A stretch of DNA of 64,000 nt from positions 1,723 through 65,722 of the forward strand of contig JAAYYE010000011.1 in NCBI GenBank assembly GCA_012515515.1. Reading direction: 5' to 3'. The notes under the pieces are model-generated. The model was not told the DNA's origin, searched no databases, and saw only the letters and a program-made list of their open reading frames with translations. Below, in pieces: positions 5,121 through 45,904 of this stretch (positions are counted from its first letter, which is position 1; each line of letters opens with the position of its first letter). Position numbers and translations under genes: made by a program. This stretch comes from Minisyncoccota bacterium (GTDB lineage: Bacteria > Patescibacteriota > Microgenomatia > UBA1400 > PJMF01).

Positions 5121-5858
5121 ATGGAAACTCTTCTCTACATTTTACTGGCAACTTTTTTAATTAGTGCTGGGTCTTTACTGGGGATTTTTACTCTGGCCCT
5201 AAAAGAAGATAAATTAAATAAAATTTTACTTTTATTGGTGTCGCTGTCGGCAGGGGCTCTGATGGGTGGCGCTTTTTTTCACCTGCTACCCGAAGCTTCG
5301 GAGCAACTTGAGGCGTCTAGTGTTTACAACACGGTTCTTTTATCTTTTATTGCCTTTTTTTTCATTGAAAAACTTTTTCATTGGCGACATTGTCATAAGG
5401 GTCACTGCGAAGTGCACACTTTTGCCCACATGAATTTATTTGGCGATGCTCTGCATAATTTTATTGATGGGCTGATTTTGGCTGGGGCATTTATGACTGA
5501 TATTAAATTGGGTGTGGTAACCACACTAGCTATTGCTCTTCACGAAATTCCTCAAGAAATTGGTGATTTTGGGGTGCTGTTATACGCTGGTTTTAGCAAA
5601 AAAAAGGCACTTGTAGCCAATTTTTTAGTGGCATTAAGCGCTGTGTTTGGTGGTTTGGCTGCTTATTTTCTGGCATCGCTAGATCATTTTATTGCTTATT
5701 TATTACCTTTTGCTGCCGGTGGTTTTCTGTATATTGCTGCATCAGATCTGATGCCCGAAATTAGAAAAGAGCCCAGTTTAAAAAAATCTCTGGCTTCTTT
5801 TGCTGTTTTTCTGATTGGGGTGCTGATTATGTATTTAGTGACATTGCTTGAGCATTAA
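5121..5858 (+). CDS. zupT: ZIP-family divalent metal (zinc) transporter, ZupT-like
   Basis: ZIP signature HNFIDGLILAGAF ... ALHEIPQEIGDFGVLL, with multiple TM helices. Confidence 0.8.
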   Translation: METLLYILLATFLISAGSLLGIFTLALKEDKLNKILLLLVSLSAGALMGGAFFHLLPEASEQLEASSVYNTVLLSFIAFFFIEKLFHWRHCHKGHCEVHTFAHMNLFGDALHNFIDGLILAGAFMTDIKLGVVTTLAIALHEIPQEIGDFGVLLYAGFSKKKALVANFLVALSAVFGGLAAYFLASLDHFIAYLLPFAAGGFLYIAASDLMPEIRKEPSLKKSLASFAVFLIGVLIMYLVTLLEH

Positions 5859-5925
5859 GATTGGAAATAGCAATTTCAAAGGCAACAAAATTGTCAATAG
5901 GTGGTCCTGTTAATCATCAATCTAA

Positions 5926-7353
5926 CTACTGGTCGATACTACCATGTTTTTTCATTAATTCTTCTAATGTCATATCTTCGACTCGCACACCTAAGTGCTT
6001 ATAGAAGGCCACAACATAAGTCTTAAGTGTCGGGAAACTATTATCTAGTGCTGTTATTAGTTCTGGCTGATCCTTAAGTTTTATTGCTATATCATAGAGT
6101 TGAAGTGCAGTTTGTGGATCTGGTGATAATTTTTTAAGCAGTCCTTCATAATATGCTTTATGAGGACTATCTTGCCCATTAATTTTTTCGGAAATCCCTT
6201 TGAGAGTATTTCTTAAGAATTTTGTACCCAAATACTCAATTACAAGCTCAACCACACTCTCATTTGCAAGCATATCAACTAACCCTTCACCTCCACGAGG
6301 TAGTTGTAGGTGCTCTATCCCTCGCAACACAGCTTGTTGAATAAAATCAGGGCAGTCTAAAGGAACAATCTCTGTTAAAACATCACTGTCGAAAATAAAT
6401 TTATCTGCAGCATTGCAGCTATAACTGCCCATGAGATAGGGTTGAGGAGTTATGCCCTGCGTATCAACGCGAGTAGCAATATGTTCTCGTCGTTCTCTTA
6501 GTTCTTGAGGTTCTTGAGACTGTTCTAGCCCCCTATCATGGGGTGATCTTTCAAAGAATGTACTAAGTTGAAGTAAAGCATTCAGGTCTTGAGGAACAAG
6601 TCTATAATTCTCACCGCTTAAAACATCTACTTCTGCAGAATAAAGATTGCTTACTCGTGTAAGTTGTTCACTTGTTGTTATTTCAACTTGTGCGTGTGGA
6701 TCTTGTACTAGTTTTGCAACTGGGTCATCTGGTTGTGGAGGAGTAAGTTCTGCTGTTTCAGCAACCAGTTTGGGGTCTAAACGATAACTAGTACCTTTGC
6801 CCTCATAAAATCCGTAACGATGAACCATTTCAGGTGATAGTCCTGAATAACTAATACTTGCGCCAGTTTCTAAGTTAATAACTTTATAATCGGCGTTAGT
6901 TAGTGTTCCATCATTAAAAGGAGATTGTTGAATACCTCTCACTCGCTCCACAGCACGAGCAAATTTTTTCCCATCTACGTCAACAACTTCATACTGTTCA
7001 TACTGTCCCAATTTTTTCTCTACTGGCGCACTAGCAATTTTGCGTAGAAAATTAGCAAGTTGTTGGTGGGTTAATCCCAACCCCAAAACAGTTTCATTAT
7101 CATCAACAAGAACCTCTATAAGTGATTCATGGTTACCTAGAAAACCTGCTCCTGAACTAGCTCCAGGTCGCATAATATTTTCTAATTGGCTTATTGGCTT
7201 ACCGTTTAACGAGGTGAGTGAAAGGATAAGTGAAGTTTCATTTTCCCCATGAATTTTGAAGCCTTCGGGGGTTGTTATGATTTCTACATTATTGCCTTGT
7301 TCTTTTCCTCCTGAGGGTGAGCCACCTGTAGTTTCATCTGTCATATGTGGCAA
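5926..7353 (-). CDS. Hypothetical protein, 475 aa, no recognisable domain
   Basis: Long intact ORF. Composition differs from the AT-rich flanking genes. Confidence 0.5.
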   Translation of the reverse strand: MPHMTDETTGGSPSGGKEQGNNVEIITTPEGFKIHGENETSLILSLTSLNGKPISQLENIMRPGASSGAGFLGNHESLIEVLVDDNETVLGLGLTHQQLANFLRKIASAPVEKKLGQYEQYEVVDVDGKKFARAVERVRGIQQSPFNDGTLTNADYKVINLETGASISYSGLSPEMVHRYGFYEGKGTSYRLDPKLVAETAELTPPQPDDPVAKLVQDPHAQVEITTSEQLTRVSNLYSAEVDVLSGENYRLVPQDLNALLQLSTFFERSPHDRGLEQSQEPQELRERREHIATRVDTQGITPQPYLMGSYSCNAADKFIFDSDVLTEIVPLDCPDFIQQAVLRGIEHLQLPRGGEGLVDMLANESVVELVIEYLGTKFLRNTLKGISEKINGQDSPHKAYYEGLLKKLSPDPQTALQLYDIAIKLKDQPELITALDNSFPTLKTYVVAFYKHLGVRVEDMTLEELMKKHGSIDQ

Positions 7354-12786: not shown

Positions 12787-13962
12787 ATGAAAAGAGAGGA
12801 TGTTGTAATAGTTATTGTATTGGTGTTTTTGATGTCCTTGTTTATGGGTGTGCTTGACGCTTTTGCGCAAACCCCTGAGCAAGAGGATGTCAGTATCAGC
12901 GGTTTCCAGCTTGCTGGAGACCGTACCACGGAGTTGTTGACAACCCCGCTTTCTATTAAGCCGGGGGATTGTGGTGCGCTCCCTCCTCCCTCGTTTGAGG
13001 GAGTAAAGAGGAACCTCGAGCTTAACGAGGACTCAACAAAAATTCAGGTCTACTATGACTCAAACAAGGGCATGGTATGTGCCCAAGTTTGGGGTACCTG
13101 GCCTGGAACTGTCAACAATGACGGAGTGCAAGAGTTTGACTCCGTCATGCGGGTGTATAAGGGTTACAATCTATTGGAGGTTCAAGACGAACCTTTGATT
13201 AAAAGTAATCCATTTACAGGTGGAATTCCCTTCCACTTGTATTCATTTAAGCTCCCCAAGGGGGGTGGAGAGTATTATTTTTTGTTTGATTTTTACCAGC
13301 AACAATTGCTGGGAAAAGACCGCTTGGGGATGCCTCACCGTGACTGGTCAGGCACCTTTCGTAGCGGACCGCATAGGATATTTCTTCCTATCATCATCAA
13401 GCCGGTGCCACCAACACCGCCACCTCCTCCACCACCACCTCCTCCTCCTCCACCAACCGATTGTCCAAGTTGGACAATTGAAGCGGTTGCGCCGGGATTT
13501 AGCATTCCGGCGTTAACTTACGAGAAAGGGGGTAATCATTACCCCACCATTGGATACTTGTATTTTGGACAGACGATGTCTGTCAAAATCAAGAACAATG
13601 GTGTTGTGTCCAATCTCCCCACGGGTGGGGAGACCACCGTGTACGACGGAGCGGGTAACGTTGTGGCTGAATATGGCCGCAATGGAAACTTCAGTGTCGT
13701 CGGGGGTCAAGGTGTCTTTGGTGAAGATTTCTTCACCTTTGACTCCTCCTTCCTCTGGCAAGGGGGAAGCTGTCGTGCCTCATTCACGATTTGGGACCCC
13801 GAACCGGTCCTGAATCATTTGGAGGCAGAACTTGGCGTGAGTCGTGAAGAGGCTATTAGCCTTTTGAACGACTATTTTAACGAAATCGCCACAACCACTA
13901 CCACCACCACTACAACCCTAACTCAGGATGTCTGGGATTGGGTTGAAACTATCAGCAAGTGA
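12787..13962 (+). CDS. Secreted protein with poly-Pro and poly-Thr linkers
   Basis: Sec-type signal peptide (MKREDVVIVIVLVFLMSLFMGVLDAFAQ), a P14 tract and a T9 tract. GC-rich codons. Confidence 0.55.
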   Translation: MKREDVVIVIVLVFLMSLFMGVLDAFAQTPEQEDVSISGFQLAGDRTTELLTTPLSIKPGDCGALPPPSFEGVKRNLELNEDSTKIQVYYDSNKGMVCAQVWGTWPGTVNNDGVQEFDSVMRVYKGYNLLEVQDEPLIKSNPFTGGIPFHLYSFKLPKGGGEYYFLFDFYQQQLLGKDRLGMPHRDWSGTFRSGPHRIFLPIIIKPVPPTPPPPPPPPPPPPPTDCPSWTIEAVAPGFSIPALTYEKGGNHYPTIGYLYFGQTMSVKIKNNGVVSNLPTGGETTVYDGAGNVVAEYGRNGNFSVVGGQGVFGEDFFTFDSSFLWQGGSCRASFTIWDPEPVLNHLEAELGVSREEAISLLNDYFNEIATTTTTTTTTLTQDVWDWVETISK

Positions 13963-13970
13963 GATGTCAA

Positions 13971-14013
13971 CCAGCTGCCCGCTTTTTAGCGGGCAGCTGG
14001 AAATCTTTTCTTT
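13971..14013 (+). terminator. Rho-independent terminator (CCAGCTGCCCGC-ttttta-GCGGGCAGCTGG + T-rich)
   Basis: Perfect 12-bp stem directly after the stop codon, followed by a T-rich tail. Confidence 0.65.
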
Positions 14014-14274
14014 ATTTAAATATTTTAATTTACTGCACTTTTGTGTAGTTTTTTTAGTAGCTAAAATTTTAGAACAGCGCACCGTTATATAGTTTTTTTG
14101 CTGGCTGAAAAAAATAAAAAGGGAAAGTTGTAAGCGCAATTATCGTTTTTCTAGCAATTCTTATTCCATCAAAAAATTATAAGTAGCGTTTTATTATTAA
14201 TCATTGTCCCATAGAATATCTATATTGTATTGATTTTTTGATTTCTTTTGATACAATAATATCTGTTTTGTGAT

Positions 14275-14334
14275 AGATTCTCTTCTATAAAAACATAGCG
14301 TTTTTGGTGAGGATAGTCTAGCCCTTTAACATTC
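14275..14334 (+). promoter_or_regulatory. Conserved ~58-bp upstream element, copy B
   Basis: Copy of the 12610-12668 element, ~95 nt upstream of the ATG at 14428. Confidence 0.5.
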
Positions 14335-14427
14335 AAACATTTTGTGGACTTAAATTGACCCAACCAAAAGAGGACTCATAATAATCTTTTTTTGGTTGGG
14401 TCAATAGAAAAAAGAAAGAAGGTAGAA

Positions 14428-15408
14428 ATGATACAGACTTTGTGGGAATCACTGTTGCAACTTTTGTCCAATATAATTTTATTTATTGGGCAACTGTTTA
14501 CTGTAGGGGGCAAAATGATTGCCCTCCCAGGTTTTCTCGGCCTGGCAATTGGACTAATACTATTCGCAATTGCTTACAAAAAAACCGAGCATCTTTTAGG
14601 ATCACTCCTCCTACTGGGAGGGGCAGGTCTGACAGTATTTATAATAGTGTCGTACCTACTCTGGCCTTTTTTGTTTAAAGGGTCAGAGAACAGCGTCACC
14701 AGCTGTTACAAGGCGGCTGGAACAAATATAGCAGCCGTGTCAATCTGTGACAGCATTTCTAGTGGTTTTGTTCCCCCATCAACAACACCTGGTGAGCAAA
14801 CACCAGTTGTTGTCGTTCCCCCTACTGATCCTGATGATCAGCAGGTAGTTAGAACGTTCAAGGCAAACGCCTTGGAAATTTTAATCCTGGGGTGGAATCT
14901 AAAACCACCTGGTACGACTAATTTAATCAATCCTGCGGATGTTCCGCAGGGCATTATGTTGTCTTTTGAGTGTGACAATCCAATTGCTACACGTCAAAAC
15001 GAGGTCTGGAAGGTTACCATTTCTGGCATCGTGCCAGGACTAGGGCAAAAATCCCTAGTAATAGAAACAAATGGCTACTTCGCCAGGGACGGCTTTAAAG
15101 CTAAACCTGGCACAAGTGTTGTTGGAACAGGAACTTGGGAGGAGGTTTGTCCAAGTTGCTATACCGATGTGGTGGTTACCCCACCACCTCAACCAACACC
15201 CACTCCAGCTCCCGCTCCAGCAACGACCCAGGTCGCCTTTCCAGAACTCATTTGTGGGTACTGGGGGTGGCTTTTGCAGTCTGGCAATGCGCTGGTGGTT
15301 CCAACCACTGGTGGGCAGCCAGACTTTGCCCACGCGGTGTCCCAAGCTGCAGCCGCAGCGGACATCGCTAAGAGGTGTCCCGGCGAAACCTTGCCGGCAC
15401 CTCCATAA
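14428..15408 (+). CDS. Membrane-anchored Pro/Thr/Ala-rich surface protein
   Basis: AAGG RBS before the ATG at 14428. Three N-terminal TM helices, then a Pro-rich region (PPPQPTPTPAPAPA). Very GC-rich 3' half. Confidence 0.5.
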   Translation: MIQTLWESLLQLLSNIILFIGQLFTVGGKMIALPGFLGLAIGLILFAIAYKKTEHLLGSLLLLGGAGLTVFIIVSYLLWPFLFKGSENSVTSCYKAAGTNIAAVSICDSISSGFVPPSTTPGEQTPVVVVPPTDPDDQQVVRTFKANALEILILGWNLKPPGTTNLINPADVPQGIMLSFECDNPIATRQNEVWKVTISGIVPGLGQKSLVIETNGYFARDGFKAKPGTSVVGTGTWEEVCPSCYTDVVVTPPPQPTPTPAPAPATTQVAFPELICGYWGWLLQSGNALVVPTTGGQPDFAHAVSQAAAAADIAKRCPGETLPAPP

Positions 15409-15563: not shown

Positions 15564-16355
15564 ATGGCAAGAAAAGAAATACCAGGATTTAACGCTCCTG
15601 CTCCTGATAGCGATCGTCCTCGATCAAGAAAAGAAAAAATACCAGGATTTAACACTCCTGCTGATGATAGCGATCGTCCTCGATCAAGAAAAGGAAGTTC
15701 GTTTTTAAAAAACATGCTTAATGCTCCAGGAGTCGGTGTTCCTGCTGATGATAGCGATCGTCCTCGATCAAGAAAAGGAAGTTCGTTTCTAAAAAATATT
15801 TCTAATATACCAAGCATTGGTGTTCCAAATCAAAAGTTGCTTGAAGAAGAGGCCAACAAAAAACAACAAGGAGCGCAGAAACGAGCACAGATAGAAGCAC
15901 TCCAACAAGATAAAAAAGATGCAACTAATCAAGCAAAACTTGGTGCAGTTACAACAGTGGTTGGCTTAGCTATTGAGGATCCTCTAATGGCTACTGAGGG
16001 ATTTATAAATACTGCGGCAGGTGTGACTAAGAGGAAAACAGCTAAAGAACGGATTAAATCGGTGAAAAAAAATCCCAGAGCAGCCAATAGCGTTGGCTCA
16101 AGAACTGAGGATGGTGGTCAATTTAGTGGTGTAATTAAAAAAGCAGCTTCAGCCATTTTCAGTAAGATTTTTAGCAAAAAAAGTAAACCTGCTGAGACAG
16201 AACAAGCAACTCAAACGCCACCAAACGCATCAAGCAAAAGTGAGAGAGCTTATACTCCACCAAACTACTCAGATGATGAGGATATCATCGAAGGAGAGTT
16301 TACCGTCGTTGACGATGGCAAGCCCAAACAATTAACCAATGGTAAAAAGAGCTAA
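15564..16355 (+). CDS. Hypothetical protein with N-terminal 3x tandem repeat IPGFN.PA.DSDRPRSRK(GSSFLKN), no signal peptide
   Basis: Coding tandem repeats span 15585-15800. The start is taken at MARKEIPG, which has an AAGGAAAAA RBS. Confidence 0.5.
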   Translation: MARKEIPGFNAPAPDSDRPRSRKEKIPGFNTPADDSDRPRSRKGSSFLKNMLNAPGVGVPADDSDRPRSRKGSSFLKNISNIPSIGVPNQKLLEEEANKKQQGAQKRAQIEALQQDKKDATNQAKLGAVTTVVGLAIEDPLMATEGFINTAAGVTKRKTAKERIKSVKKNPRAANSVGSRTEDGGQFSGVIKKAASAIFSKIFSKKSKPAETEQATQTPPNASSKSERAYTPPNYSDDEDIIEGEFTVVDDGKPKQLTNGKKS

Positions 16356-16384
16356 TTATATAAAAACACTTAAAGAAAAATATT

Positions 16385-18397
16385 ATGTCAAAGGAAAGAA
16401 GAGGTATTCCTGGAATAACTCATCCGCCAGATGAGACTGACAGACCTCAAACAAATTATTCACGACCCGAGCCTAAAGATCATGGACTTGGTCAATTGTT
16501 ACAAGCTCCAAAAGACATAATAGTCACAGGTTTGCGAGCTATAGCTGGCGCTCTTACTATATCTTTAGCAAGAACTTTAGGCATTAGAGACTCTGTGTCT
16601 CGAGCTGAAAAAGATTTAGCCATCTATGAATCACAACTTAATAAAAGAAAAGGGAATACTGAGAAATTACAGGAAAAAATAGATAAGACAAAAGCTTTAC
16701 TGACTGAATTGAATAAGGGAGTTGAGTTGAGCGAGGCAATTTTAAATATTCAAGAAGACTATAACGAGTTATTGGCAGATGATGAACATCTTTTGTCATT
16801 GTTAGCTAAAACAATTGGCAAGGAAGGTTTAGAAACTATTAAAGGAAGTTTTTTAACTAATCAAAAAACTCAAGTAGGAGTTAAGTCCGTTACTGATGAG
16901 GAAATTAAATTAGCCCAAGAATTTTTTGCTAGAGCTGATAATGATGAAGAAAGAAGTAGCTCACTTAAACAACACATTCAACAGTTAGCCGAAACTAATT
17001 TAATTGTTTTAGGTAAACAGTTGGTTAATTTAGCAAAAATTAAAGAAATTGATGAAATTAATCAAGAGACAAATTTTCCTATTAACTGGGTGTCTTGGGA
17101 CGAAGCCTTAGCAGCTTCGGTAATGGGAGCTACGGGTAGAACTCAAGAATCTCTTCGGGGTGGTTATGGAGTGAATATGAAAGCGGGTGGATTGAATGTT
17201 TCTGCAGGACAGGATATAAGCCAAATTGGTCCTATGGAACAAATTGTAGTTCATGCTGATATACCACAAAATATTGAAGCTGCTAGATCGGTGGCAAATG
17301 GTGAGGTGCCTCTCTTTAGATCAGCAATTATTAAAAGTTTATTTAGAAAAGCTATGGGTGACCTTTCACTATTGCCTGGAAGAATTGATATTAATAACAC
17401 TGGTAATAATAATACTAAGTCATACCCCGCTTTAGATGTTAATCGTCAAATGAACAATATTACTTTAGTTCGTAAGGCTGCAATAGAAATGCAAAAAATT
17501 TTAAAAGGTCTTGAACAAATTGACCTTGGCAAAGATGATGATCAAGCAACACAAAAAAGCAAATTAATTACTGTTGGAAGTAGGGGGGCTTTAGCAATAC
17601 CAAGATATCAAGTTATTGTTGATTTAATGGAGCAAATAAGTGCAACAGATCCAGGAATTATTGCTAATTTAAGTGAGCAATATCGTGTGCTAGAGGAAGT
17701 GGCTGATGAAGACTTAAACGATCAAAATTTGGATGGCGAAGCGGATTTGGCCGAAGAACAACAAGAGGAGCAGGAAGATCAAGCTGATGAAGATGAAGAT
17801 CAAAATATTAATCAAAAGGAGAGAGATTTAATTGAAGCAGTATTTCCTCAGGGAATTGATCAGCGGAATGCAAGGCGGATTATTAACCGTCCAAAAATTT
17901 ATTTTGACAACTTCACTAAACGCTTTGGTCTAATAACAGGTATAAGAACCATGGTGGCTGTCGCAAAAGAAGCTAGAAGGCTGGTTGATACACAAAAGAC
18001 TGATCAAAACGAGGGTGATTTAGTTGAAGCAGTATTTCCTCGGGGCATTGATCAGCGAACTGCAAGGCAAATTATTAAACATCCAAAAATTTATTTTGAC
18101 AACTTCACTAAACGCTTTGGTCTAATAACAGGTATAAGAACCATGGTGGCTGTCGCAAAAGAAGCTAGAAGGCTGGTTGATCAGGAAGACAGAAGGATAT
18201 TAGAAGAAGAAGCTTTAAAACTAGCTGGTTATTTTCACGGGATGAGTATTGAACAAGCCACAAACTTTATAGACAATCTCCAAGCTAATCGTGAGAAATT
18301 ACGTAGGATGTATGGCACAAAAAAGGGCAATAAAACTGCTGATCTAATTAAAGAATTTGCTAAAAAAATTCTTGGGCAAGTGGGTAATTTTAAATAA
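16385..18397 (+). CDS. Large acidic coiled-coil-rich hypothetical protein (670 aa) sharing the N-terminal IPG..P.DE.DRP motif
   Basis: Begins MSKERRGIPGITHPPDETDRPQ. Contains an acidic EEQQEEQEDQADEDEDQ block and a 64-aa internal tandem duplication. Confidence 0.55.
   Translation: MSKERRGIPGITHPPDETDRPQTNYSRPEPKDHGLGQLLQAPKDIIVTGLRAIAGALTISLARTLGIRDSVSRAEKDLAIYESQLNKRKGNTEKLQEKIDKTKALLTELNKGVELSEAILNIQEDYNELLADDEHLLSLLAKTIGKEGLETIKGSFLTNQKTQVGVKSVTDEEIKLAQEFFARADNDEERSSSLKQHIQQLAETNLIVLGKQLVNLAKIKEIDEINQETNFPINWVSWDEALAASVMGATGRTQESLRGGYGVNMKAGGLNVSAGQDISQIGPMEQIVVHADIPQNIEAARSVANGEVPLFRSAIIKSLFRKAMGDLSLLPGRIDINNTGNNNTKSYPALDVNRQMNNITLVRKAAIEMQKILKGLEQIDLGKDDDQATQKSKLITVGSRGALAIPRYQVIVDLMEQISATDPGIIANLSEQYRVLEEVADEDLNDQNLDGEADLAEEQQEEQEDQADEDEDQNINQKERDLIEAVFPQGIDQRNARRIINRPKIYFDNFTKRFGLITGIRTMVAVAKEARRLVDTQKTDQNEGDLVEAVFPRGIDQRTARQIIKHPKIYFDNFTKRFGLITGIRTMVAVAKEARRLVDQEDRRILEEEALKLAGYFHGMSIEQATNFIDNLQANREKLRRMYGTKKGNKTADLIKEFAKKILGQVGNFK
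17825..18181 (+). repeat. Intragenic tandem duplication, 192-bp period (2 copies, distal ~100 bp identical)
   Basis: Both copies encode DL[IV]EAVFP[QR]GIDQR.AR.II..PKIYFDNFTKRFGLITGIRTMVAVAKEARRLVD. Confidence 0.7.
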
Positions 18398-18595: not shown

Positions 18596-20368
18596 GTGAA
18601 ACGCAAATTGTTTTACACCACCTTGCTGGTGGTGTTGTTGACCCTCACCATAATGGTGGGGCCAGTTTTAGCTGGCGAAACGTGGTTAAATACTCCAGTA
18701 GTTGGTTCCATTCGATGTGGAGCTGGCTTTGGAGAAAGAAACCCGCTCGGCGGGCAAGACTTCCACAATGCCGTTGATATGGCATGTGGAATGTATCGCG
18801 CACGGGTGCTGGCAGTAGCATCTGGCGAAGTCGTTTGGAACACTTATTGGCCGATAGGCAGTGCGCCAAACGTGGGTCACGGTATTACCGTGATTATCAA
18901 GCATCATGATGGGCTCTATACCTATAGCGCTCATCTGGATGAAGCCGCGGTGAAGGTAGGTCAACAAATCGACCAAGGATCGGTAATTGGCCATGTTGGG
19001 AATACTGGGTATGTTATTAGCACTCCAGGCAATCCCAATTACCATTTACACTTTGCCGTAAGGAATACTGGCCCAGATGATGGTGGTTGTTGGGATGCCA
19101 CTTGTTGGCTTAATCCCGACAATTTTTTGGGAAAAAGTCCGGAAATTGCCAATCCGGATCCAGGCACTCCAAACCCAGAACCCAATAAGTTTAATTTAAT
19201 CACAACAATTGATGAAGTTGTTGCGATTATTAAACACATTCCAAAGTTTAAAGATTGGGATGAAAAATGGGAGGGGATTAAAGGATATATTCCTTATATT
19301 CCCTGGGTCTTGGCCGGGTTAACCTTACTGGTTTTTCTTGGCCTCTTATGGCTAATAAAACCAGTGTTGAACTGGCTCGCGAAAACTCACTGGTGGCGAA
19401 AAAGATATCATAATGTCGAGCTGTTTTGCTTAGCGTTAGGTATCAAGCTCTTTGGCGAAGGTCTCTATTGGGCACAAATGGCCCAATTCGCTTTTGCTGC
19501 CTGGGGCTTTTACTTTTCGGAGCAAATAATTGAAAGGTCTTATCGCCATTTTAATTATGATCCAGATGTTAAAAAAGACGGCCCTGGCAAAAGAGAATGG
19601 CTAAGAAAAATTATTAACATTATGTTCAACATCGCGTTAATAATGTCAATCTTGGCCTATTCATGGGGATTTTTCCTCATGAACTCAGATTTCCAGGAGC
19701 TTGTTGATGTCTGGGGGTGGTTTGATGATCCAGACCAACCAGATCAACCAGACCCACCAAGCCCGCCAGATCCACCAAGCCCGCCAGATCCAACCCCAAA
19801 GCCTCCTAATATAATTATAGGTGGAGGGGTGAAAATCGTCTTTGATTGCAATTTTAATGCAATCAAGGCTGGATTGGGACCAGTGCAGGTAGGCTGCGAC
19901 GCCCATGGTTTGCCAAAGTTTTTGATCACTTGGTGGAATGGTCAAAAGTTTAATTTCCAAATTCCATTGGAAATTTGGATAGCAGCCCTGGAGGCGGGCA
20001 ATACCCCAGAGCAAGTTTTGGGGATTATTGCCATTGCCAGTTCCGAAAGCACCGGGTTTACCAATTACCAAACGGAAAACCCCTATGGTGCCCTAGGCGT
20101 TTGGCAATTTTTGCCTGCCACCTACACTGCCTGGGCGGAACCAGGCTATGAGAATCCTGCATACCGCACCAACATCCCCATTGCTGCAAAGGCAGTTGGG
20201 AACATGATGGAAGGTGGCATGAATGAGATTTATCTCATGGATCACAGCAATTTTGTCTCCTGTTTTATGGGAGGGAACGGTTGCTGGACCTGGAACCAAC
20301 ATTCCGCGCAAGCGGATTATGCCTACCGCATCCTTTTTGCTTTAAAGGTCGCGGCAGGTCTCAAATAA
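18596..20368 (+). CDS. Bifunctional cell-wall hydrolase: N-terminal M23 (LytM) peptidase + C-terminal lytic transglycosylase (SLT)-like domain, with membrane segments and a PD/PS-rich linker
   Basis: GTG start with an AGGAGG RBS, then a signal peptide. M23 motifs FHNAVD (HxxxD) and HLHF (HxH). The SLT-like region SSESTGF ... GALGVWQF has a catalytic Glu-Ser and a GLMQ-like box. Three to four hydrophobic helices lie between the domains. Confidence 0.65.
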   Translation: MKRKLFYTTLLVVLLTLTIMVGPVLAGETWLNTPVVGSIRCGAGFGERNPLGGQDFHNAVDMACGMYRARVLAVASGEVVWNTYWPIGSAPNVGHGITVIIKHHDGLYTYSAHLDEAAVKVGQQIDQGSVIGHVGNTGYVISTPGNPNYHLHFAVRNTGPDDGGCWDATCWLNPDNFLGKSPEIANPDPGTPNPEPNKFNLITTIDEVVAIIKHIPKFKDWDEKWEGIKGYIPYIPWVLAGLTLLVFLGLLWLIKPVLNWLAKTHWWRKRYHNVELFCLALGIKLFGEGLYWAQMAQFAFAAWGFYFSEQIIERSYRHFNYDPDVKKDGPGKREWLRKIINIMFNIALIMSILAYSWGFFLMNSDFQELVDVWGWFDDPDQPDQPDPPSPPDPPSPPDPTPKPPNIIIGGGVKIVFDCNFNAIKAGLGPVQVGCDAHGLPKFLITWWNGQKFNFQIPLEIWIAALEAGNTPEQVLGIIAIASSESTGFTNYQTENPYGALGVWQFLPATYTAWAEPGYENPAYRTNIPIAAKAVGNMMEGGMNEIYLMDHSNFVSCFMGGNGCWTWNQHSAQADYAYRILFALKVAAGLK

Positions 20369-20564: not shown

Positions 20565-22895
20565 ATGAAAATATCCTGCCCAAAAAAAACAATCTTTCTT
20601 GTAAGTGTTTTTGTAATTTTTTTATTGGTATTTTTTAGAAAAAATCCAAACTTTTTTGCCTTTTCAGACTCGACTAAAGGCAACTTTTATCTTAATCACC
20701 AGATGGTGAGGGCTAATGAGGACGAGTCTGATCCTTCTCCTGTCACAGTAGAATTAGATCCAGCGCCAAGCCTAATACATAATTTGACTCCTAGTTTTAG
20801 TGGCACAGCTACTACAACTAATGATTCATATATTGTTAGCGTAATGTACAGGATTGATGAAAATCCTCCAAAATATTGTTGGGCAAAAGATGAGGATTTT
20901 GATAGTGATTCTGAGGATTTCATTTGTCAAATTGATAGACCTTTAGCAAATGGGGAGCACACGATTTTTATTAAGGCTTGGGATGAGGATGAATCAGAAA
21001 GTGACCCTGAATTATCAAAAATTACTTTTACCATTAAAAATCCTAATCCCCCAGTCGCTGATTTTCCGCAAGTTGCTGGTGAAGTCTATGCCACTGCCGT
21101 GAGCGATGACGGCAAGACCTTATATATTGGTGGTGATTTTGAGAGTGTTGAAGATCCTGAAGGAACTCCAAAAGAGCGCCATAATTTAGCCGCTATTGAT
21201 TTAGAAACGATGTTGGTAACTGATTGGAATCCTTCAGATTGGTATTGGAGTGGTCCAGTTTATGACATTGAAATTGATGGAGGGTATGTCTTAATTGGTG
21301 GTAGTTTTTATTATAGTGTGGATGAAAATAATGTTAGTCAATTTGCTAAACTCCATCAAGAAACTGGCCTGATAGATGAAGCTTGCACGCCTAGGGTGCT
21401 GAGAACTGGAGATTTTCAGACATACACCATATATGATCTTAAGCTCACAAATGATTATATTTATCTTGGAGGAGACTTTGATGACATTGATGACACCAGA
21501 GTATATGGTCTCGCTAGACTTAATAGAGATACTTGTGCACTTGATACAACTTGGCTTCCTGAAGTAGGTGGCAGTGTGCAAACTATTGAAACAATGGGTG
21601 ACAGTGTTTTTATTGGTGGTGATTTTTGGGAAGTTAACGAATCAGAGCGCGAGGGATTTGCCAAAATTAGTGCCAGTACAGGCATTTTAGATAGTAATTG
21701 CATAAAAGAGTTTGATGACAACAATACAATTTATTCCATCAAAGCCGATAATAATTATCTATATGTGGGTGGTGAATTTGATCAAATTTATGATCCACCT
21801 TTAAATGCAACTTTTCAGCGCAATGGTTTAATTAGATTAAAAAATGATAATAGTTGTTTATTAGATCAGATTTGGGATCCCAATCCTCATTTTTATGATT
21901 TTGAAGATGATGATTGGTATCCTGGTGCTATTTACTCTATTAATCTTGATGAAACAGATAGTAGTATTTATGTTGGTGGTAGCTTTAGTAGTATTGGTGG
22001 TCAAAGTGGTAGTGAATTTGCTAAATTAGACATTGATACTGGTTTAGCAGACCTTAATTGGAACCCAGGAATTTGGGTGAAGGATGGAGGCGGAGGTTCA
22101 AATCCTGTTCCCAGCACCGTTCATTCATCAGTCATTACTGATAATTACTTAATTGTCGGAGGTGGTTTTGATCGAGTAGGAACTGAAGAAAGACACTCTT
22201 TGGCGGCTTTTCCCCATGAGAAAGCACTTGGTCCCACTCCAGAACCATCAACATCTTCTGCTGATAAAGCTAAAAAAGATCATCAAGACAAAACCGAAAC
22301 AGTGCAAATTCCCCACGCAGTTAAAAAACTTTTTGGCTTGATTGTGGCTAAACCGGTTAAAGACTCAAACACCAATGGCCAAGAAGTATTGAGTATTGTT
22401 TTTAAAGACACTTTAGATTTTGATGCTTATCTCTCGGTTAATCATACGCCGGTAGGCGATTTGCCAATGCTGAGAGAACAAAATAATCAAGCAAGCGCCA
22501 ATAATACAGCTGCTAATAAAGGTAATTTCCTAATTGCTGGTTGGCGGGGTCATCAATTAATGGGTTTTAAAGAAAATAAAACCATTTATTGGCAAATAGG
22601 CAATATTCAACAAATGTTTTATAAAGCCTATCCAGTTGCTGGAAAAGAAGCGCCCGTAATTATTCCAGAAATTCAACATAAATCTTCAATTATTGCGCTC
22701 AAATACAATAAGAGTCAGCTAATTCCACCTGGAGAGCCCAATACTAAATTTAGCGAATTAAAACTCAAACTTGCCCACTCAATGGATGGTGTCAACTGGC
22801 GGGTTATGCCCAATTCAGTTGTTGATCCGATCAATAACACTGTGGCCGTTATTGATAAATTGGGTGGTTACTACGTGATTGTTGCTAGTTATTAG
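20565..22895 (+). CDS. Delta-60-repeat (beta-propeller-like) surface protein, N-terminally membrane-anchored
   Basis: Reiterated motif of about 55-60 aa: LY[IV]GG.F ... FAKL/GLARL ... G.LD..W.P (for example GLARLNRDTCALDTTW and EFAKLDIDTGLADLNWNP). One N-terminal TM helix. Confidence 0.6.
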   Translation: MKISCPKKTIFLVSVFVIFLLVFFRKNPNFFAFSDSTKGNFYLNHQMVRANEDESDPSPVTVELDPAPSLIHNLTPSFSGTATTTNDSYIVSVMYRIDENPPKYCWAKDEDFDSDSEDFICQIDRPLANGEHTIFIKAWDEDESESDPELSKITFTIKNPNPPVADFPQVAGEVYATAVSDDGKTLYIGGDFESVEDPEGTPKERHNLAAIDLETMLVTDWNPSDWYWSGPVYDIEIDGGYVLIGGSFYYSVDENNVSQFAKLHQETGLIDEACTPRVLRTGDFQTYTIYDLKLTNDYIYLGGDFDDIDDTRVYGLARLNRDTCALDTTWLPEVGGSVQTIETMGDSVFIGGDFWEVNESEREGFAKISASTGILDSNCIKEFDDNNTIYSIKADNNYLYVGGEFDQIYDPPLNATFQRNGLIRLKNDNSCLLDQIWDPNPHFYDFEDDDWYPGAIYSINLDETDSSIYVGGSFSSIGGQSGSEFAKLDIDTGLADLNWNPGIWVKDGGGGSNPVPSTVHSSVITDNYLIVGGGFDRVGTEERHSLAAFPHEKALGPTPEPSTSSADKAKKDHQDKTETVQIPHAVKKLFGLIVAKPVKDSNTNGQEVLSIVFKDTLDFDAYLSVNHTPVGDLPMLREQNNQASANNTAANKGNFLIAGWRGHQLMGFKENKTIYWQIGNIQQMFYKAYPVAGKEAPVIIPEIQHKSSIIALKYNKSQLIPPGEPNTKFSELKLKLAHSMDGVNWRVMPNSVVDPINNTVAVIDKLGGYYVIVASY

Positions 22896-23816: not shown

Positions 23817-25160
23817 TTGCTGTATCTAGCTATGTTAAAAAAGAAATCTAGCTTAATTATTGCGATTGTTTTTTCTTTACTTGTTGGCGTGGGTGGTGGC
23901 TTATTGCTTAGCCACTACCAAGATCGTTTGCCGCTAATTGCTAATTTAATTAAGCAAGACTCAAAGCAAAATGAAGACAATGTTTATTTAGCTTTTTTAC
24001 AGGAGCTTCGCCAAATTATCTTAGAAAATTATTGGGACACCATTAATGAGACACAGTTTGTTAAATTACATGTTTTAGTGCTTGAACAAATAACGGGAAC
24101 AACTTTTGGTGATGCCATAGAAAATTTCACAGATTTAGATCAGCAAATTCTTGAATTACTTAAAGACTATCCCGAAGAATTGAAGCAAGAATTTACTGTG
24201 CAGTTGGCCGATTTAGTTTTAACTAATCTAGAGCCTTTTGGTCGCAGTCGACTTTATTCTCAACAATTAGAAGATGATTTAGCTGAACGGGTCAACAATA
24301 TCGATCCAGAAGCTGATCATTATCAGTCTTTAAATGTAGCTAAAGACGCTACCAGCGAGGAAATTAGTCAGGCTTTTGTAGAGCAAGAAGCTATTTTAGA
24401 AAAAGAGAATACTCCAGAAGCAGCAGCTCAATTAGCAGAAATTCGCCAAGCTTATCAGACCTTAGCCAATGAAGAAAATCGCCAGCGTTATGATGAGGCA
24501 GGGGTTAATCCTAGTATGGAATGGCGTTTGCTTAATTCTGCAGTTTTTTATGTGCATATTAAACAATTTACACCAAACACCGTTCAAGAACTTTTAGAAG
24601 TCAGCCAAAAAGTTGATGATCGAGGAGAAGAGTTGGACTCATTAATTCTAGATTTGCGAGGCAATATTGGTGGAGCTATAGACGGTTTGCCCTACTTTTT
24701 GGGGCCATTTATTGGTCAAAACCAATACGCCTATCAATTTGTTCAACAGGGAAAAATTACCGATTATAAAACTCGTAGCAGCTATTTACCCTCTCTGGCT
24801 CGTTATAAAAAAGTGGCTATCTTAATCGATGAGCAAGTACAATCAACAGCCGAAGTGATGGCCAGTGTACTGAAAAAATACAACGTGGGGGTATTAATTG
24901 GCACTAATACTATGGGTTGGGGCACAGTCGAACGAGTTTTTCCTCTTGAAAAGCAAATTAGCGAGAGTGAGCGCTATTCAGTTTTTTTGGTTCATCATCT
25001 AACTTTGCGTGAAGATGGCGTAATTATTGAGGGCAATGGGGTGGCGCCGGTTATCAACACTCAAGATGTGGCTTGGCAACGGCGTTTAGCTAGTTATTTT
25101 GGTGATTCAGCCATTGTGTCAGCGGTGACAGAGCAATTTGCTTTCCCAGAAGCAAATTAA
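23817..25160 (+). CDS. S41-family (C-terminal processing) peptidase-like protein with N-terminal TM anchor and degenerate J-like segment
   Basis: LDLRGNIGG matches the S41 DLRxNxGG box, and QSTAEVMA looks like the Ser-containing segment. The J-domain-like stretch (DHYQSLNVAKDATSEEISQAF...RQAYQTL) lacks HPD. Confidence 0.5.
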   Translation: MLYLAMLKKKSSLIIAIVFSLLVGVGGGLLLSHYQDRLPLIANLIKQDSKQNEDNVYLAFLQELRQIILENYWDTINETQFVKLHVLVLEQITGTTFGDAIENFTDLDQQILELLKDYPEELKQEFTVQLADLVLTNLEPFGRSRLYSQQLEDDLAERVNNIDPEADHYQSLNVAKDATSEEISQAFVEQEAILEKENTPEAAAQLAEIRQAYQTLANEENRQRYDEAGVNPSMEWRLLNSAVFYVHIKQFTPNTVQELLEVSQKVDDRGEELDSLILDLRGNIGGAIDGLPYFLGPFIGQNQYAYQFVQQGKITDYKTRSSYLPSLARYKKVAILIDEQVQSTAEVMASVLKKYNVGVLIGTNTMGWGTVERVFPLEKQISESERYSVFLVHHLTLREDGVIIEGNGVAPVINTQDVAWQRRLASYFGDSAIVSAVTEQFAFPEAN

Positions 25161-29055: not shown

Positions 29056-29132
29056 AAGGGCAAACACTCGTTGATTATGTGTTAATTAATTGGTCTGTTG
29101 CAACACGACGAGTAGTACAAAAGGTATCTATT

Positions 29133-32100
29133 ATGAAAAAACGCACCCGCGCTCTCTTTCTTAAAGTAATTACTTTTTTCCAAATTTTCTCTCTCATTTT
29201 TCAACCCCTAAGCTTATTATCTTTGTTAGTACTTGATCCTGTCGTGGCAAGAGCTCAAGATGAAGTTGTACTTGAGGAGCAGATTTCTGTAGAGCCAATG
29301 GCAGAAGCCAATGTTCAAGCAGAATCAGTAGTGGATGAAGATGCCGAAGAGATCATTGAGCATGAAGACGCAGATGATGATCTAATAGATATTGAAGAAG
29401 ATCTTGAAGAAGAATCTGAAGAAGAGTCTGAAGAAATTCCAGAAGAAATTCTGCCAGTGGCAGATGAAGAAGAGCCTAGCGAGGATGATGCTAGTGCTGA
29501 AGCAGATCTAGAATTATCAATCCCAGAACCAACTTTAACTTTAATTCCTACCCCGATGCCAACAGAGTCAGTAGCTGAAAGTAAGGAAGACAATTCTTTA
29601 ATGCTGGGTGATTTTATGTTTAGTTTAAATTCCGAAGGAGCAGGAGAATACACTATTTCTGGTACTAGTGGTATTTGGACATCAACAAGTAATAATAACA
29701 TCGTTAGTGGTAGAAATACTAACTATATAAAATGGCCAACATCTGGTAATCAAAGTGGTCTTCGCTTTACAGGGGTTAGTAGCTTTAACTTTAACGAAGA
29801 GCAGACTTTTTCTCTAGGTAAGTTGGAGCATTTTAACTATCCTGTAAGTAGTGCAATAACGAAAGCTACTCTTAGTGTGGATATAAATATATCTAATCCT
29901 AACTTAGGTACAAAAACTTTCGAATTTGAAATGCTTATTGATGAAACTGATAATGTTGCTGGGAGATGTCCTAGTTGGCATACGTATGGCCACCCCGCCT
30001 GTGATGACAAAATTACTTTTCCCACATCATACGCTAAACAAACCTTTGACATGGGTGGGAAAAAATATACATTAGAGATAACAGGATTTATTAATTCTTC
30101 TGGAACTAAGGTTAATGAATTTATTACAGAAGAGAGCAAAACAAATGAGGCTACATTAGTTGGTAAGCTAACATCTGTAGATTCCGAGGTAGCTATTTGT
30201 CATGCAACTGGAGATGAATCTAATCCTTATCAAAAAATTACTGGTGTTGATGCAAATGCTACTGTAGGTGATCATGATAGTGACAATGGAGATGCTTGGT
30301 ATCCTGGGATTACTGGAACTTGGGGCGATATTATTCCTAGATTTTTGTATTTTGATGGAAGCGGTAATATTCAAGCATATGAAGGAAAAAATAATGATGA
30401 ATACGGTCTTTCCCTTTTAGCAAATAATTGTGAACTTCCTAGTGGAGAAATTGAAGTAAAAAAGGTTACTGTTCCAGAGGGAAACAACACATCTTTTGGT
30501 GTTACTGGAACTGGTGTAGCTTCTATTTCTAACTCTCCAGTTACATTTATAGATGGAAATACAGGAACTATTTCAGCGACAGAGTCAAAAACATTCAAAG
30601 TATATCCAGGTAAATATTCATTTACTGAAACTCTACCCAGTGGTTGGATACAAACAGGTAATACTTGTAATAATATTGAAATTGAAAATGATGATGAAAA
30701 GTCTTGTACTATTACAAATACTCTTCAGCACGGAACATTAACACTCGTTAAAAAAGTTGTTAACAATAATGGGGGACAATCATTAGCCTCTGCTTGGACA
30801 TTATCTGCTATTGGAAGTGAGGAAAACTTAAGTGGTAAAGGAACTCAAGATCAAAATGAAAATAAAGCCGTACTGGAACTAAAAAATGTTAAAGCAGGAA
30901 CATATACTCTCTCAGAAGCAGGTCCTGCTGGATATGGTGCAAGTGATTGGAGTTGTAAAGATGATGATACAGGAAATGATGTAGCTCACCCAGTTACATT
31001 AGCAGGAGGCCAAAAAGTCACCTGTGCTATTACTAATGATGATATTCAACCTAAGCTTACTGTGACAAAAATAGTTGAAGGTGGAAATAAAAATGTAAGT
31101 GATTTTAAACTCTATGTCGGAAACACTGAAGTAACTAGTGGTCAGCAAACAGGGTTTAATGCAGGAACATATACTGTTAGAGAAGATACCGATTTAGATT
31201 ATAAATCTGTCATAGGAGATGATTGTGCTTCAAATGGCAGTATTACTCTAGCCCCAGGAGATGTTAAAGAGTGTACTATTACTAATACTAGAAAAACTGG
31301 ACAAGTCTCCTTTACTAAAAATGTCACATACGGTGATGCACAACCAAGCAATTGGTCTTTTGCTGTGTATAAAGAAGGTGTGTTGGTGGGTACGTATGAT
31401 CACAATAGTTCAGTGGCATTAGCTACAGGAGTATATACAGTACAAGAAGTGGGTTCCACTTCTTCTTTACCTTACTATTTAGATAGTATAGGAGGGACAG
31501 CATGTAGTGGAACTGTTTTATCTGGAGTTGCACAACTTACAGTAACAGAAAGTGGAGGTACCTGTATATTTGGAAACTCAAAGAAACCTCAGCTTACTGT
31601 TATCAAAGTAGTAGAGCCTACGGATAGTACAGATATCTTTGGTTTTACAATAACTGAAAGTGATGAAGATATAAGTGAATTTACTTTAGGTCATAGCGAA
31701 CCAAAAACTGTAGATGTTATGCCTGGTTCATACACTATTACAGAAACAGGAGCTACAGGATACAGTACTAAAATAGAGTGTACTGATGATCTAATTCCTA
31801 CTTTTGCTACTGCACGCACTATTTCATTAAATGCAACAGAAAATAAATTCTGTAAATTTACTAATACAAAATTAGGTTCTATCTCTGGAACTAAATGGAA
31901 CGACATAAATGGTGATGGAATTAAAGATGAGGGAGAAGAAGCTGTAGAAGGAGTACAGATTTGTATAGATGCAAATGCAAATAGTGTTTGTAATGAGGGT
32001 GAGGTTTCTGTAGCTACAGATGCTTCTGGAAGCTATACTTTTTCTAACCTCTTACCTGGTTCATATACCATTATTGAAACACTTAATTCGGGTTGGGAGC

Positions 32101-36692: not shown

Positions 36693-37308
36693 AAAAGCTT
36701 GCCCTAAGCTAAGGCTGGTTTTGGCCAGCCTGTTGATTATCGCTGGGTTAACGATTTTACTGGTGGCTTATGGGCCAATTTTAGTGGCTGAACTGCGCTT
36801 TGTTTTTCGCCAGCGTAATTCTCAATTAATTGACAATGGTCAAGCTAGCTCTCAATTTACCGAAATCAAGCCTGTCGACGAGGACTTTAGCATCGTAATT
36901 CCCAAGATTAATGTGAATGCCGCCATCGTCCAAGATGTTGATCCTTATAGTTCTTTTGAGTATCAGCGGCAGTTGGCTAAGGGTGTGGCTCATGCGGCAG
37001 GCACCGCTTTGCCCGATGAGGAGCGCAGTATGTTTTTGTTTGCTCATGCTAGTGGCGATATTTTGATGGCGCGCCGCTATAATTCAGTGTTTTATTTGTT
37101 GAACAAATTGGAGGCGGGCGACCAGCTGCTGATTTACTATCGCGGCGCGCCCTATCACTACCAAGTTATCTCTAGTAAAGAGGTTGCTCCTGATGCTATT
37201 GCTTATTTAGAAAACAATGATGAAAGTGATCTAATTTTAATGACTTGTACGCCTCCTGGAACTACTTGGCGTCGCTTATTGGTTTTTGCTGATAAAATTT
37301 CTCCCTAG
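36682..37308 (+). CDS. Sortase-family transpeptidase (class E-like)
   Basis: One N-terminal TM helix. The catalytic segment LILMTCTP matches the sortase TLxTC motif. The ATG at 36682 overlaps the 3' end of the adhesin ORF by 11 nt. Confidence 0.6.
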   Translation: MKNKKACPKLRLVLASLLIIAGLTILLVAYGPILVAELRFVFRQRNSQLIDNGQASSQFTEIKPVDEDFSIVIPKINVNAAIVQDVDPYSSFEYQRQLAKGVAHAAGTALPDEERSMFLFAHASGDILMARRYNSVFYLLNKLEAGDQLLIYYRGAPYHYQVISSKEVAPDAIAYLENNDESDLILMTCTPPGTTWRRLLVFADKISP

Positions 37309-45648: not shown

Positions 45649-45904
45649 TAAGCCTTTCTTAAGCTCTATTAGCTAAGTTCATGTTCAATGAACTTCAATT
45701 AATAATTGCCGTGGAAAAGCCTTGAAAAATCGTTTGATGCTCGTCAAAACTGATTTGGGCTGAAGATCGGACTTAGTTGCCTTGAGGACAAAATTACCGT
45801 TGCGGCACAGTCATGGAATTTCACCATGTTCCACAGCAAATTCAATTTAACAGAAAATTTTTATTAAGGCAATGCTTAATTTACTTTGGCTTGAGTTTGC
45901 TATT

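Follow-up and report, generated by a model that had tools for sequence, protein, structure and literature searches.

In the FtsEX-EnvC/PcsB/CwlO/RipC, SpdC-SagB and ActH-LytH complexes, a membrane hydrolase is encoded adjacent to polytopic and coiled-coil partners and is controlled from the cytoplasmic side. A gene cassette resembling these systems was found in a bacterium of the Minisyncoccota (Patescibacteriota; Microgenomatia). Much of bacterial diversity belongs to the Patescibacteria, or Candidate Phyla Radiation (CPR), whose members live attached to other cells; little is known of their envelope biology. The stretch analyzed here, termed the window, comprises 64,000 nucleotides of contig JAAYYE010000011.1. 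Its cassette consists of genes for a protein with three N-terminal transmembrane helices (the TM protein), two adjacent proteins named pA and pB, and a membrane-embedded peptidoglycan hydrolase. A preliminary description of the sequence had singled out pA and pB, two open reading frames (ORFs) which exist as it described them, and suggested that a motif common to their N-termini could mark substrates of an unrecognized export route. The present analysis defines a conserved four-gene envelope module, two orphan protein families, the motif which links them, and candidate docking sites. It is proposed, tentatively and with a probability of about 40%, that pA and pB are cytoplasmic, membrane-proximal subunits which dock through this short linear motif, present in multivalent form in pA.

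The comparison with the hydrolase complexes named above is an analogy only. The likeness includes an M23 domain, which is present in the cassette hydrolase. Unlike those systems, the cassette encodes neither a CAAX-like nor a rhomboid-like protein and no FtsE/FtsX ABC pair (the window's only ABC gene, at 40080-41927, is a fused exporter 20 kb away). Moreover, the cassette hydrolase itself bears a four-TM core, and pA and pB are without sequence or fold relatives. A second group of comparable enzymes are the VirB1-type hydrolases of type IV secretion systems (T4SS), such as PrgK (LytM, SLT and CHAP domains), TraG of pIP501 and CwlT, which likewise are membrane-anchored and combine M23 with an SLT-like domain. 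In Patescibacteria, VirB1 homologues often carry M23 domains (PMC12102498). The cassette hydrolase is of this type, which alone is not enough for membership in a T4SS. A Pfam scan of the window covered 37 ORFs of at least 100 amino acids (aa), the longer, non-overlapping ones, with a 2537-aa ORF and eight shorter ORFs left out. Among these 37 ORFs no EssC-like, VirB4, VirB6 or FtsEX genes were found, nor VirB3, TrsD or a pilin array. The idea of a T4SS component was rejected, as neither VirB4 nor VirB6 was found among the scanned ORFs. A further likeness to the T4SS of Patescibacteria is an orphan VirD4/TrwB-like ATPase upstream of the cassette in three distant loci. In contrast to a T4SS, VirB4, VirB6, VirB3, TrsD and a pilin array do not adjoin the cassette, and the window's clade has no such ATPase. 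In deep lineages, VanW or Amidase_2 takes the place of the catalytic domains around the same TM core of the hydrolase, and pA and pB match no T4SS component. Since the defining components were searched for and not found, membership in the hydrolase-complex or T4SS systems is not claimed.

Two kinds of short N-terminal sequence also invite comparison. In type III, type IV and type VII secretion systems (T3SS, T4SS and T7SS), unrelated neighboring effectors can carry a short terminal motif in a disordered tail, as pA and pB do; the signals are N-terminal in T3SS, C-terminal in T4SS, and YxxxD/E together with WXG/LXG in T7SS. In contrast to such effectors, no cognate machinery (EssC/EccC, T3SS or VirB4) accompanies pA and pB, no WXG/LXG domain was found by Pfam at E<1 in 16 pB homologues, and the motif is repeated internally. 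A type IV pilin-like class III signal is absent from pB, in which 'MSKERRG' is followed by the polar stretch IPGITHPPDETDRPQ and the only hydrophobic helix begins at residue 43. The membrane-targeting sequences of SepF, of PspA/Vipp1 (helix alpha-0) and of MinD/FtsA resemble the amphipathic starts seen in deep lineages of the cassette, but in character only; the latter, too, occupy the very beginning of proteins that lack a signal peptide and would act at the membrane. There is no homology, the window's clade has no N-terminal helix, and we know of no counterpart of the PG[VIF]xxP turn in these sequences.

No known family could be assigned to pA or pB, as had been stated before: searches against Pfam, NCBIfam, PHROGs, PADLOC and PDB families gave no match. 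In PHROG nothing scored below E=0.009 for either protein, PADLOC gave no match for seven window proteins including the four of the cassette, and a PDB sequence search with pB, pA and TM-protein profiles returned only coiled-coil noise. tblastn of pA and pB against 50,697 phage records and plasmid collections found no match, and Rfam showed no RNA family in the region. A prophage remnant or phage tail or lysis module was rejected, since the cassette is syntenic with rpsB in deep lineages and phage genes are absent. The function is most probably of a known kind, namely control of a membrane hydrolase complex from the cytoplasm; the pA and pB families are new and the cassette is uncharacterized.

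A peptide common to two unrelated proteins

The N-terminal regions of pA and pB share the conserved core (I/A)PG[VIF][TNG]xP. The motif had been described as IPG..P..D.DRP; its core proved to be a selected, protein-level feature, whereas the 'DRP' extension was found only in the window's closest relatives. pB opens with MSKERRGIPGITHPPDETDRPQ, and residues G7, I8, G10, T12, P14 and E17 are invariant in 14 pB orthologues (40-100% identity). pB homologues at 24-30% identity also keep the motif, as GGIPGVTR (P0018), KGIPGVTRP (P0019) and GGIPGVTRS (P0022), and the pA genes which adjoin distant pBs read MGFLEKLLNAPGVGTP (L010) and MGLLKKLKDIPGVGTP (L011). The window and 11 related loci were translated into six-frame ORFs (~105,000 residues in total) and searched with the regular expression PG[VIF][GTNS].P, which matched only pA, pB, the secreted protein (SP) encoded upstream of the cassette and one spurious reverse-strand ORF, with ~0.5 matches expected by composition. 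A search for further carriers in ~250 kb of sampled related DNA found none.

Of the seven motif residues that are identical in pA and pB, five are encoded by different codons in the two genes. It is therefore the peptide that is conserved and not the DNA or RNA, and RNA-level conservation was ruled out because synonymous sites differ. Profile-profile comparison by hhalign detected no homology between the two proteins (E=0.21, with an alignment that was not at the N-termini). The codon differences and the hhalign result uphold the earlier statement that the motif is common to otherwise unrelated neighbors, and on the same grounds the two genes were rejected as recent partial duplicates of each other. 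The identical core is only 5-7 residues long and the region is prone to tandem duplication, which would be compatible with a chance resemblance, or with a recent partial duplication or gene conversion of the 5' ends that has no function. This is extremely unlikely and largely refuted: the motif is kept in both families across lineages of 24-50% overall identity and the regular expression is private to the cassette, in addition to the codon and profile evidence. On these comparisons, the motif is more than chance and a real, selected feature of the proteins.

In pA the motif is repeated. The three tandem copies previously reported are present as IPGFNAP (15579-15599), IPGFNTP (15639-15659) and APGVGVP (15723-15743), and a fourth, degenerate copy (IPSIGVP, 15807-15827) was found in addition. 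D(S)DRPRSRK follows each of the first three. Tandem Repeats Finder (TRF) identified a 60-bp repeat (two copies, 94% matches) and an 84-bp repeat (two copies, 86%) in pA; P0016, a 79%-identical orthologue, lacks the 60-bp duplication. The number of motif copies is four in the window and three in L016 and L017, and pA of L014 has four spaced copies of the related 'DLNxP[IF]TxP'. As read from the sequence, such multivalency would suit a ligand and not a terminal signal. It also bears on the suggestion that the motif is a processing, regulated-proteolysis or degron site at which both N-termini are matured or removed. The motif is short, conserved, rich in Pro and Gly and followed by acidic residues, it lies in disordered tails, and in the window's clade the cassette is syntenic with a gene for a DnaJ-S41 peptidase. 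However, cleavage at the internal repeats would fragment pA, the S41 gene lies outside the cassette in deep lineages, and to our knowledge no protease specificity matches the motif, which makes a processing site very unlikely.

The motif is not uniform across the lineages. In L017 the motif Pro was lost from both proteins (pA EIQGFN, pB GISGIT), a correlated change which, on sequence grounds, is suggestive. The pBs of L012, L014 and L015 have no motif although the cassette architecture is the same. In deep lineages, the core is preceded by an amphipathic stretch of the form 'MG-h-h-x-K-h-h' (hydrophobic moment 0.46-0.63), as in the N-termini 'MGFLEKLLNAPG', 'MGLLKKLKDIPG' and 'MSFWNAFKQ'. In the window's clade a basic patch stands in this place, and the amphipathic stretch occurs in the window's pA only internally (SSFLKNMLNAPG / SSFLKNMLNAPGVGVP).

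Architecture and predicted location of pA and pB

pA is a basic (pI 9.8), Cys-free protein of mostly low complexity. From the N- to the C-terminus it contains the motif repeats, a charged helix, a G/A/T-rich and weakly hydrophobic hairpin (15939-16025) and an acidic-aromatic C-terminal motif. Its start is most likely the ATG at 15564 ('MARKEIPG'), since all orthologues begin MA(R)KEIPG. The C-terminal motif is the most widely conserved part of the protein (DIIEGEFTVVDDGKPKQL in the window, EIIDVEYRIIDD in L011 and EDGVFRVIDG in L015) and loosely fits [FY]xxxD (EGEFTVVDD here, EYRIIDD in L011). In L017 (pA at L017 1276-2001) the C-terminal motif is duplicated (DDIIDGEFIVFEDIVDGEFTVVEDG), and therefore both ends of pA are subject to copy-number change.

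pB was modeled with AlphaFold2 (AF2), for which the predicted local distance difference test (pLDDT) score was 49.6 with 14 close sequences and 77 after six distant homologues were added. In the model, residues 1-40 are disordered (pLDDT <50) and include the motif. They are followed by a helix (43-64), a helical bundle up to residue 228, a beta-rich domain (230-350), further helices, a disordered linker (433-476) and three ~60-residue helical modules. pB had been called acidic, which applies only mildly to the protein as a whole (pI 5.5): the 44-residue linker has a net charge of -19, and the C-terminal region is basic, with a net charge of +14 over its three modules. The most conserved motifs of the family, GATGRT..S.RGGY and LLPGRIDIG.TG, are found in the beta domain, for which Foldseek against the PDB gave weak PH/PTB-like matches (probability <=0.38). 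Foldseek of the pB model against the PDB and BFVD gave nothing below E=1e-2 (best BFVD match E=0.014, TM score <0.12) and otherwise coiled-coil noise; the weak coiled-coil matches include the enterococcal surface protein PrgA.

The absence of a Sec signal from both proteins, noted previously, was confirmed, and a Tat signal peptide is likewise missing. Their first 40 residues are polar, and no TM-grade segment was found by a simple Hessa-scale sum over 19 residues. The best sums were +8.5 for pA and +4.6 for pB, within overall ranges of +6 to +13 and +2.7 to +8.1, respectively. For reference, the real TM or signal segments of neighboring proteins gave -3.2 to +0.3 and cytoplasmic proteins gave +7.9 to +11.5. 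pA and pB contain 0-1 Cys, compared with 4-10, mostly an even number, in the exported parts of the same cassette.

The best hydrophobic segment of pB is the helix at residues 43-67 (1.4-1.8 on the Kyte-Doolittle scale; Hessa sum +2.7 to +5.4), in which G49, A52 and G55 are invariant and nearly all orthologues have a polar or charged residue in mid-helix. It is conceivable that this helix acts as a weak signal-anchor in an N-in/C-out orientation. pB would then be a bitopic surface protein with a body of ~600 residues, made up of coiled coil, beta domain and repeats, on the surface, and only its 40-residue motif tail would remain in the cytoplasm to meet pA as a cytoplasmic adaptor. The helix lies between soluble and TM proteins in hydrophobicity and follows a basic N-terminal tail, and the body is hypervariable, differs in repeat number and has almost no Cys; the match to PrgA would also be in keeping with a surface protein. 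However, the helix has R, Q, E or K in its middle and flanks without charge bias, and every real TM segment nearby has a much lower insertion score. In addition, the exported domains of this organism are Cys-rich and pB is not, and the helix is missing from the pBs P0021, P0022 and P0028, whose best segment is elsewhere. A bitopic pB is therefore considered unlikely.

The cassette and the proposed docking of pA and pB

pA and pB had been placed inside a block of envelope genes that ends with an M23/SLT enzyme, and this was seen both here and in the loci of relatives. Every relative recovered, down to a pB identity of ~20%, has the order TM protein (~335 aa), pA (134-263 aa), pB (480-673 aa) and TM-anchored hydrolase. 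In deep lineages rpsB-tsf-frr-rseP is found just downstream of the cassette, which indicates an old chromosomal module and not a mobile element. The pA and pB genes overlap or abut in L010 (8 nt), L011 (38 nt), L012, L014 and L015, and are 29 nt apart in the window. Coupling of this kind is typical of co-assembling subunits. Because a terminator-like hairpin lies 3' of the SP gene and a promoter-like site lies 5' of the TM gene, the TM, pA and pB genes, probably with the hydrolase gene, look like one transcription unit. The mechanical ORF of the TM gene begins at TTG 14392; its orthologues align from ATG 14428. SP was found only in the window's clade.

An exhaustive hidden Markov model search of 1.84 billion cluster representatives revealed only 13 pB relatives, a further large profile search returned only the 14 known sequences again, and a scan of genome contigs with the pB alignment found no relative. 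A metagenome scan added three further loci, L020 among them, all of known types.

The TM protein has a short cytoplasmic loop (AYKKTEH in the window, AW[KR]QT[RK]N in relatives) and, after its three helices, an extracytoplasmic domain with 7-8 Cys. In the hydrolase, the M23 and SLT domains face outward from the central four-TM core. The M23 domain (E=8e-19) has intact HxxxD (18761-18778) and HxH (19043-19057) motifs. The SLT/lysozyme-like domain scored E=1.5e-3 and 1.9e-4, below the Pfam gathering threshold, and contains the motifs ES (20039-20059) and GALGVWQF (20087-20110; GLxQ-like). The catalytic domains are swapped between lineages around the kept four-TM core: the window has M23 and SLT-like domains, L014 (8213-10366) has Amidase_2 and VanW, L011 (10095-11891) has VanW-like and SLT-like, and L015 (11629-13587) has a split M23 and an unidentified C-terminal domain. 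A predicted cytoplasmic loop of the hydrolase, RHFNYDP..GGPGKREWLRK (19532-19609), was kept precisely where the motif is present in pA and pB. As it is conserved only where the motif exists, this loop is a candidate docking site. Apart from six chance sites, a degenerate DNA pattern designed on it matched a single CPR genome, which is of the L021 type.

From these observations we infer a cytoplasmic location, a docking role, possible receptors and a link to hydrolase control. In the proposed scheme, Microgenomates-type CPR bacteria would have a lineage-specific envelope module centered on two polytopic membrane proteins, the three-TM Cys-rich protein and the hydrolase with its four-TM core, and pA and pB would be the subunits of this module on the cytoplasmic side, close to the membrane. 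As a short linear motif in a disordered tail, the shared N-terminal element would serve in docking or membrane targeting, and would bring pA and pB to a common site, for which the hydrolase loop, the PH-like central domain of pB and the membrane are candidates. pA, disordered and multivalent, would act as an adaptor with 1-4 copies of the motif and, at its C-terminus, the conserved acidic-aromatic peptide. Its large structured partner, pB, would combine a helical bundle and a beta domain with an acidic linker and 2-3 basic helical modules. Acting from the cytoplasm, the two proteins may set the position of the wall-cutting enzyme or gate it. A motif that serves as a docking peptide would offer a handle for pulling down the complex and for studying how a minimal cell without FtsEX controls a membrane-embedded wall hydrolase.

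The main competing explanation is that pA and pB are substrates of Sec-independent export and that the motif is their recognition signal. The TM protein, the four-TM core or both would form the conduit, the M23/SLT domains may open the wall, and an orphan ATPase may supply the energy. This ATPase is a 725-aa TrwB/DUF87/DUF8128 protein (an orphan type IV coupling protein (T4CP)-like or HerA-like ATPase) encoded on the opposite strand 2-4 kb upstream of the cassette in L011, L014 and L015. It is 71% identical between these loci, whose pBs barely align, and in L015 it is overlaid by spurious plus-strand ORFs in public gene calls. Orphan T4CP homologues are very common in Patescibacteria, mostly unlinked to virB4, and may be exapted (PMC12102498). 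Export would also account for two proteins without a Sec signal inside an envelope operon, for a motif in a disordered N-terminus, and for the variable module number and acidic linker of pB, which suit exposed proteins. So would the occurrence of at least three very divergent alleles on 91-96% identical backbones, which is typical of exposed or host-facing proteins.

Against export, the motif is internal and repeated in pA, and the pBs of L012, L014 and L015 lack it even though L014 and L015 have the ATPase. The cassette itself encodes no ATPase or recognizable translocase, and tblastn for the T4CP-like ATPase found nothing in the window, L001-L010, L012 or L013. The three ATPase-linked loci share general synteny and are therefore not independent evidence. 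Moreover, no other motif carrier was found in the sampled DNA, and in five lineages the pA and pB genes show translational coupling or overlap. Nothing was found in support of the earlier proposal that the motif is an export signal. If the motif were an export signal, it would mark a type of secretion not seen before and allow the substrates to be listed; on balance export is less likely than docking and is regarded as fairly unlikely. Internal repetition, a private motif, the lack of a translocase and gene coupling together fit the docking of pA and pB better than a secretion signal.

In three deep lineages, arrays of small ORFs were observed between the ATPase and the cassette (L015 6611-7687, L014 3039-4302) or in L012 at 5451-6024. 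They contain three or four ORFs of 36-105 aa, which are not hydrophobic in L015.

Allelic diversity of the island and neighboring features

Rapid evolution of these genes had been suggested from a tandem duplication in pB, and is now evident from raised synonymous divergence (dS), divergent alleles and the duplication itself. The duplication, described earlier as 192 bp long and very recent, spans 17811-18194. Between the two copies, 12 mismatches fall within the first 80 nt and none within the 99 nt that follow. In L020, a near-identical strain, pB has 606 aa and a single copy of the duplicated module, from which it follows that the event is very recent. P0002 has its own two-copy array, and its close relative P0003 has one copy.

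When the window was compared with L007, the flanking genes were 90-98% identical with a dS of 0.24-0.35. Nucleotide identity falls from ~0.92 to 0.53-0.82 within ~12.9-18.3 kb and returns sharply at the end of pB. Within this interval, aa identity is 67% for SP (dS 1.45; dN/dS, the ratio of nonsynonymous to synonymous divergence, 0.18), 53% for the TM protein (dS 1.70, dN/dS 0.23), 38% for pA (dS 1.26, dN/dS 0.48) and 54% for pB (dS 0.87, dN/dS 0.42). The window, L007 and L017 have three very different alleles on backbones that are 91-96% identical. L016 is a mosaic, with a pB nearest to that of the window (71%) and a pA nearest to those of L007 and L017 (60-62%). In L020, the TM protein and pA are identical to those of the window, pB is 89% and the hydrolase 80% identical. 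These sequence comparisons point to SP-TM-pA-pB as a recombining, multi-allelic island, and not simply to fast protein evolution. It constitutes a population-level signal, several deeply divergent recombining alleles on near-identical genomes. Since pA and pB alleles recombine separately, their interplay probably rests on conserved short motifs. Diversification by a diversity-generating retroelement (DGR) was considered and no sign of it was found; divergence is spread along the genes and includes synonymous sites.

Several points weigh against a docking role inside the cell. The dN/dS of pA and pB (0.42-0.48) exceeds that of their neighbors (0.03-0.26; 0.30 for a beta-propeller protein), and deep allelic divergence with high dN/dS is more usual for exposed proteins than for cytoplasmic scaffolds, although linkage to the exposed SP and TM genes could explain both. 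SP, a secreted neighbor, also matches the regular expression, through an internal APGFSIP (13489-13509) directly after its poly-Pro linker. The site is kept as APGF[ST][IV]P in the L001, L007 and L008 orthologues (chance probability ~0.01); it may be a coincidence, or a hint that the partner of the motif is extracytoplasmic. The co-variation of pA and pB in L017 is a single event, the correlation of the hydrolase loop with the motif comes from one clade and is therefore confounded by phylogeny, and the PH-like label of the pB domain rests on a Foldseek probability below 0.4.

An extension of the export model would make the cassette a self-contained envelope-crossing device, in which the hydrolase and the three-TM protein export or display pA and pB by way of (I/A)PG-h-x-x-P, with energy from the ATPase in some lineages. 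Contact of the exported proteins with hosts or phages would then account for an island that recombines and has several alleles. Such a device is also judged unlikely. Whether pA and pB dock in the cytoplasm or are exported, the hypervariable island is a candidate for a role in interactions with hosts or phages. The features of the locus are listed in Table 1.

Table 1. Features of the cassette and its surroundings (window coordinates unless a locus is named)
Feature	Position	Strand	Description
SP gene	12787..13962	+	Secreted protein: signal peptide and poly-Pro linker; first gene of the hypervariable island
Terminator-like hairpin	13971..14000	+	13-bp stem with 10 G-C pairs, strong; 3' of SP gene
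Promoter-like site TTGACC-16-CATAAT within 15-bp inverted repeat	14355..14401	+	Just 5' of TM gene
TM gene	14428..15408	+	Three N-terminal TM helices; first gene of the conserved four-gene cassette
pA	15564..16355	+	263 aa
Four pA motif copies	15579..15827	+	In recent 60-bp and 84-bp tandem repeats
pA C-terminal motif DIIEGEFTVVDDGKPKQL	16281..16334	+	Most widely conserved part of pA
pB	16385..18397	+	670 aa, no known family
pB N-terminal motif GIPGITHPP	16403..16429	+	In predicted disordered stretch
pB G/A-rich helix, residues 43-67	16511..16585	+	Moderately hydrophobic, not TM-grade
pB central beta-rich domain, residues ~230-350	17072..17434	+	Most conserved part of the family
pB hyper-acidic disordered linker, residues 433-476	17681..17812	+	Net charge -19
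Two 192-bp tandem copies in pB	17811..18194	+	Each equals one ~60-aa C-terminal helical module
Membrane-embedded peptidoglycan hydrolase	18596..20368	+	Signal peptide, M23, four-TM core, Pro-rich linker, SLT-like
Predicted cytoplasmic loop of hydrolase, ERSYRHFNYDPDVKKDGPGKREWLRK	19532..19609	+	Candidate docking site
TrwB/DUF87 ATPase	L011 1517-3688, L014 1-1980, L015 3735-5912	-	71% identical between loci

The intergenic DNA 5' of the TM gene (14100-14401) is 97% identical to that of L007, compared with 53-82% for the coding sequence on both sides. The 15-bp inverted repeat within it, TTGACCCAACCAAAA...TTTTGGTTGGGTCAA, overlaps the promoter-like site and could be an operator or attenuator. 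Just 3' of the hydrolase gene, a DUF5122 secreted beta-propeller protein (20565-22895) contains a second hypervariable stretch in its N-terminal half (20700-22200), with 66-77% nucleotide identity to L007 against ~92% for the backbone.

Further downstream, the gene at 23817-25160 joins a DnaJ domain and an S41 (C-terminal processing) peptidase behind an N-terminal TM segment. The 2537-aa ORF (29079-36692) is slightly overlapped by a sortase gene (36670-37308), and its product is presumably a giant sortase-anchored surface protein. An AdoCbl-II (cobalamin) riboswitch was identified at 45753-45848 on the minus strand, with a score of 37.9 bits, above the gathering score. It lies directly 5' of a minus-strand ORF (44923-45648, 241 aa) without a Pfam match, which may encode a B12-related transporter or binding protein.

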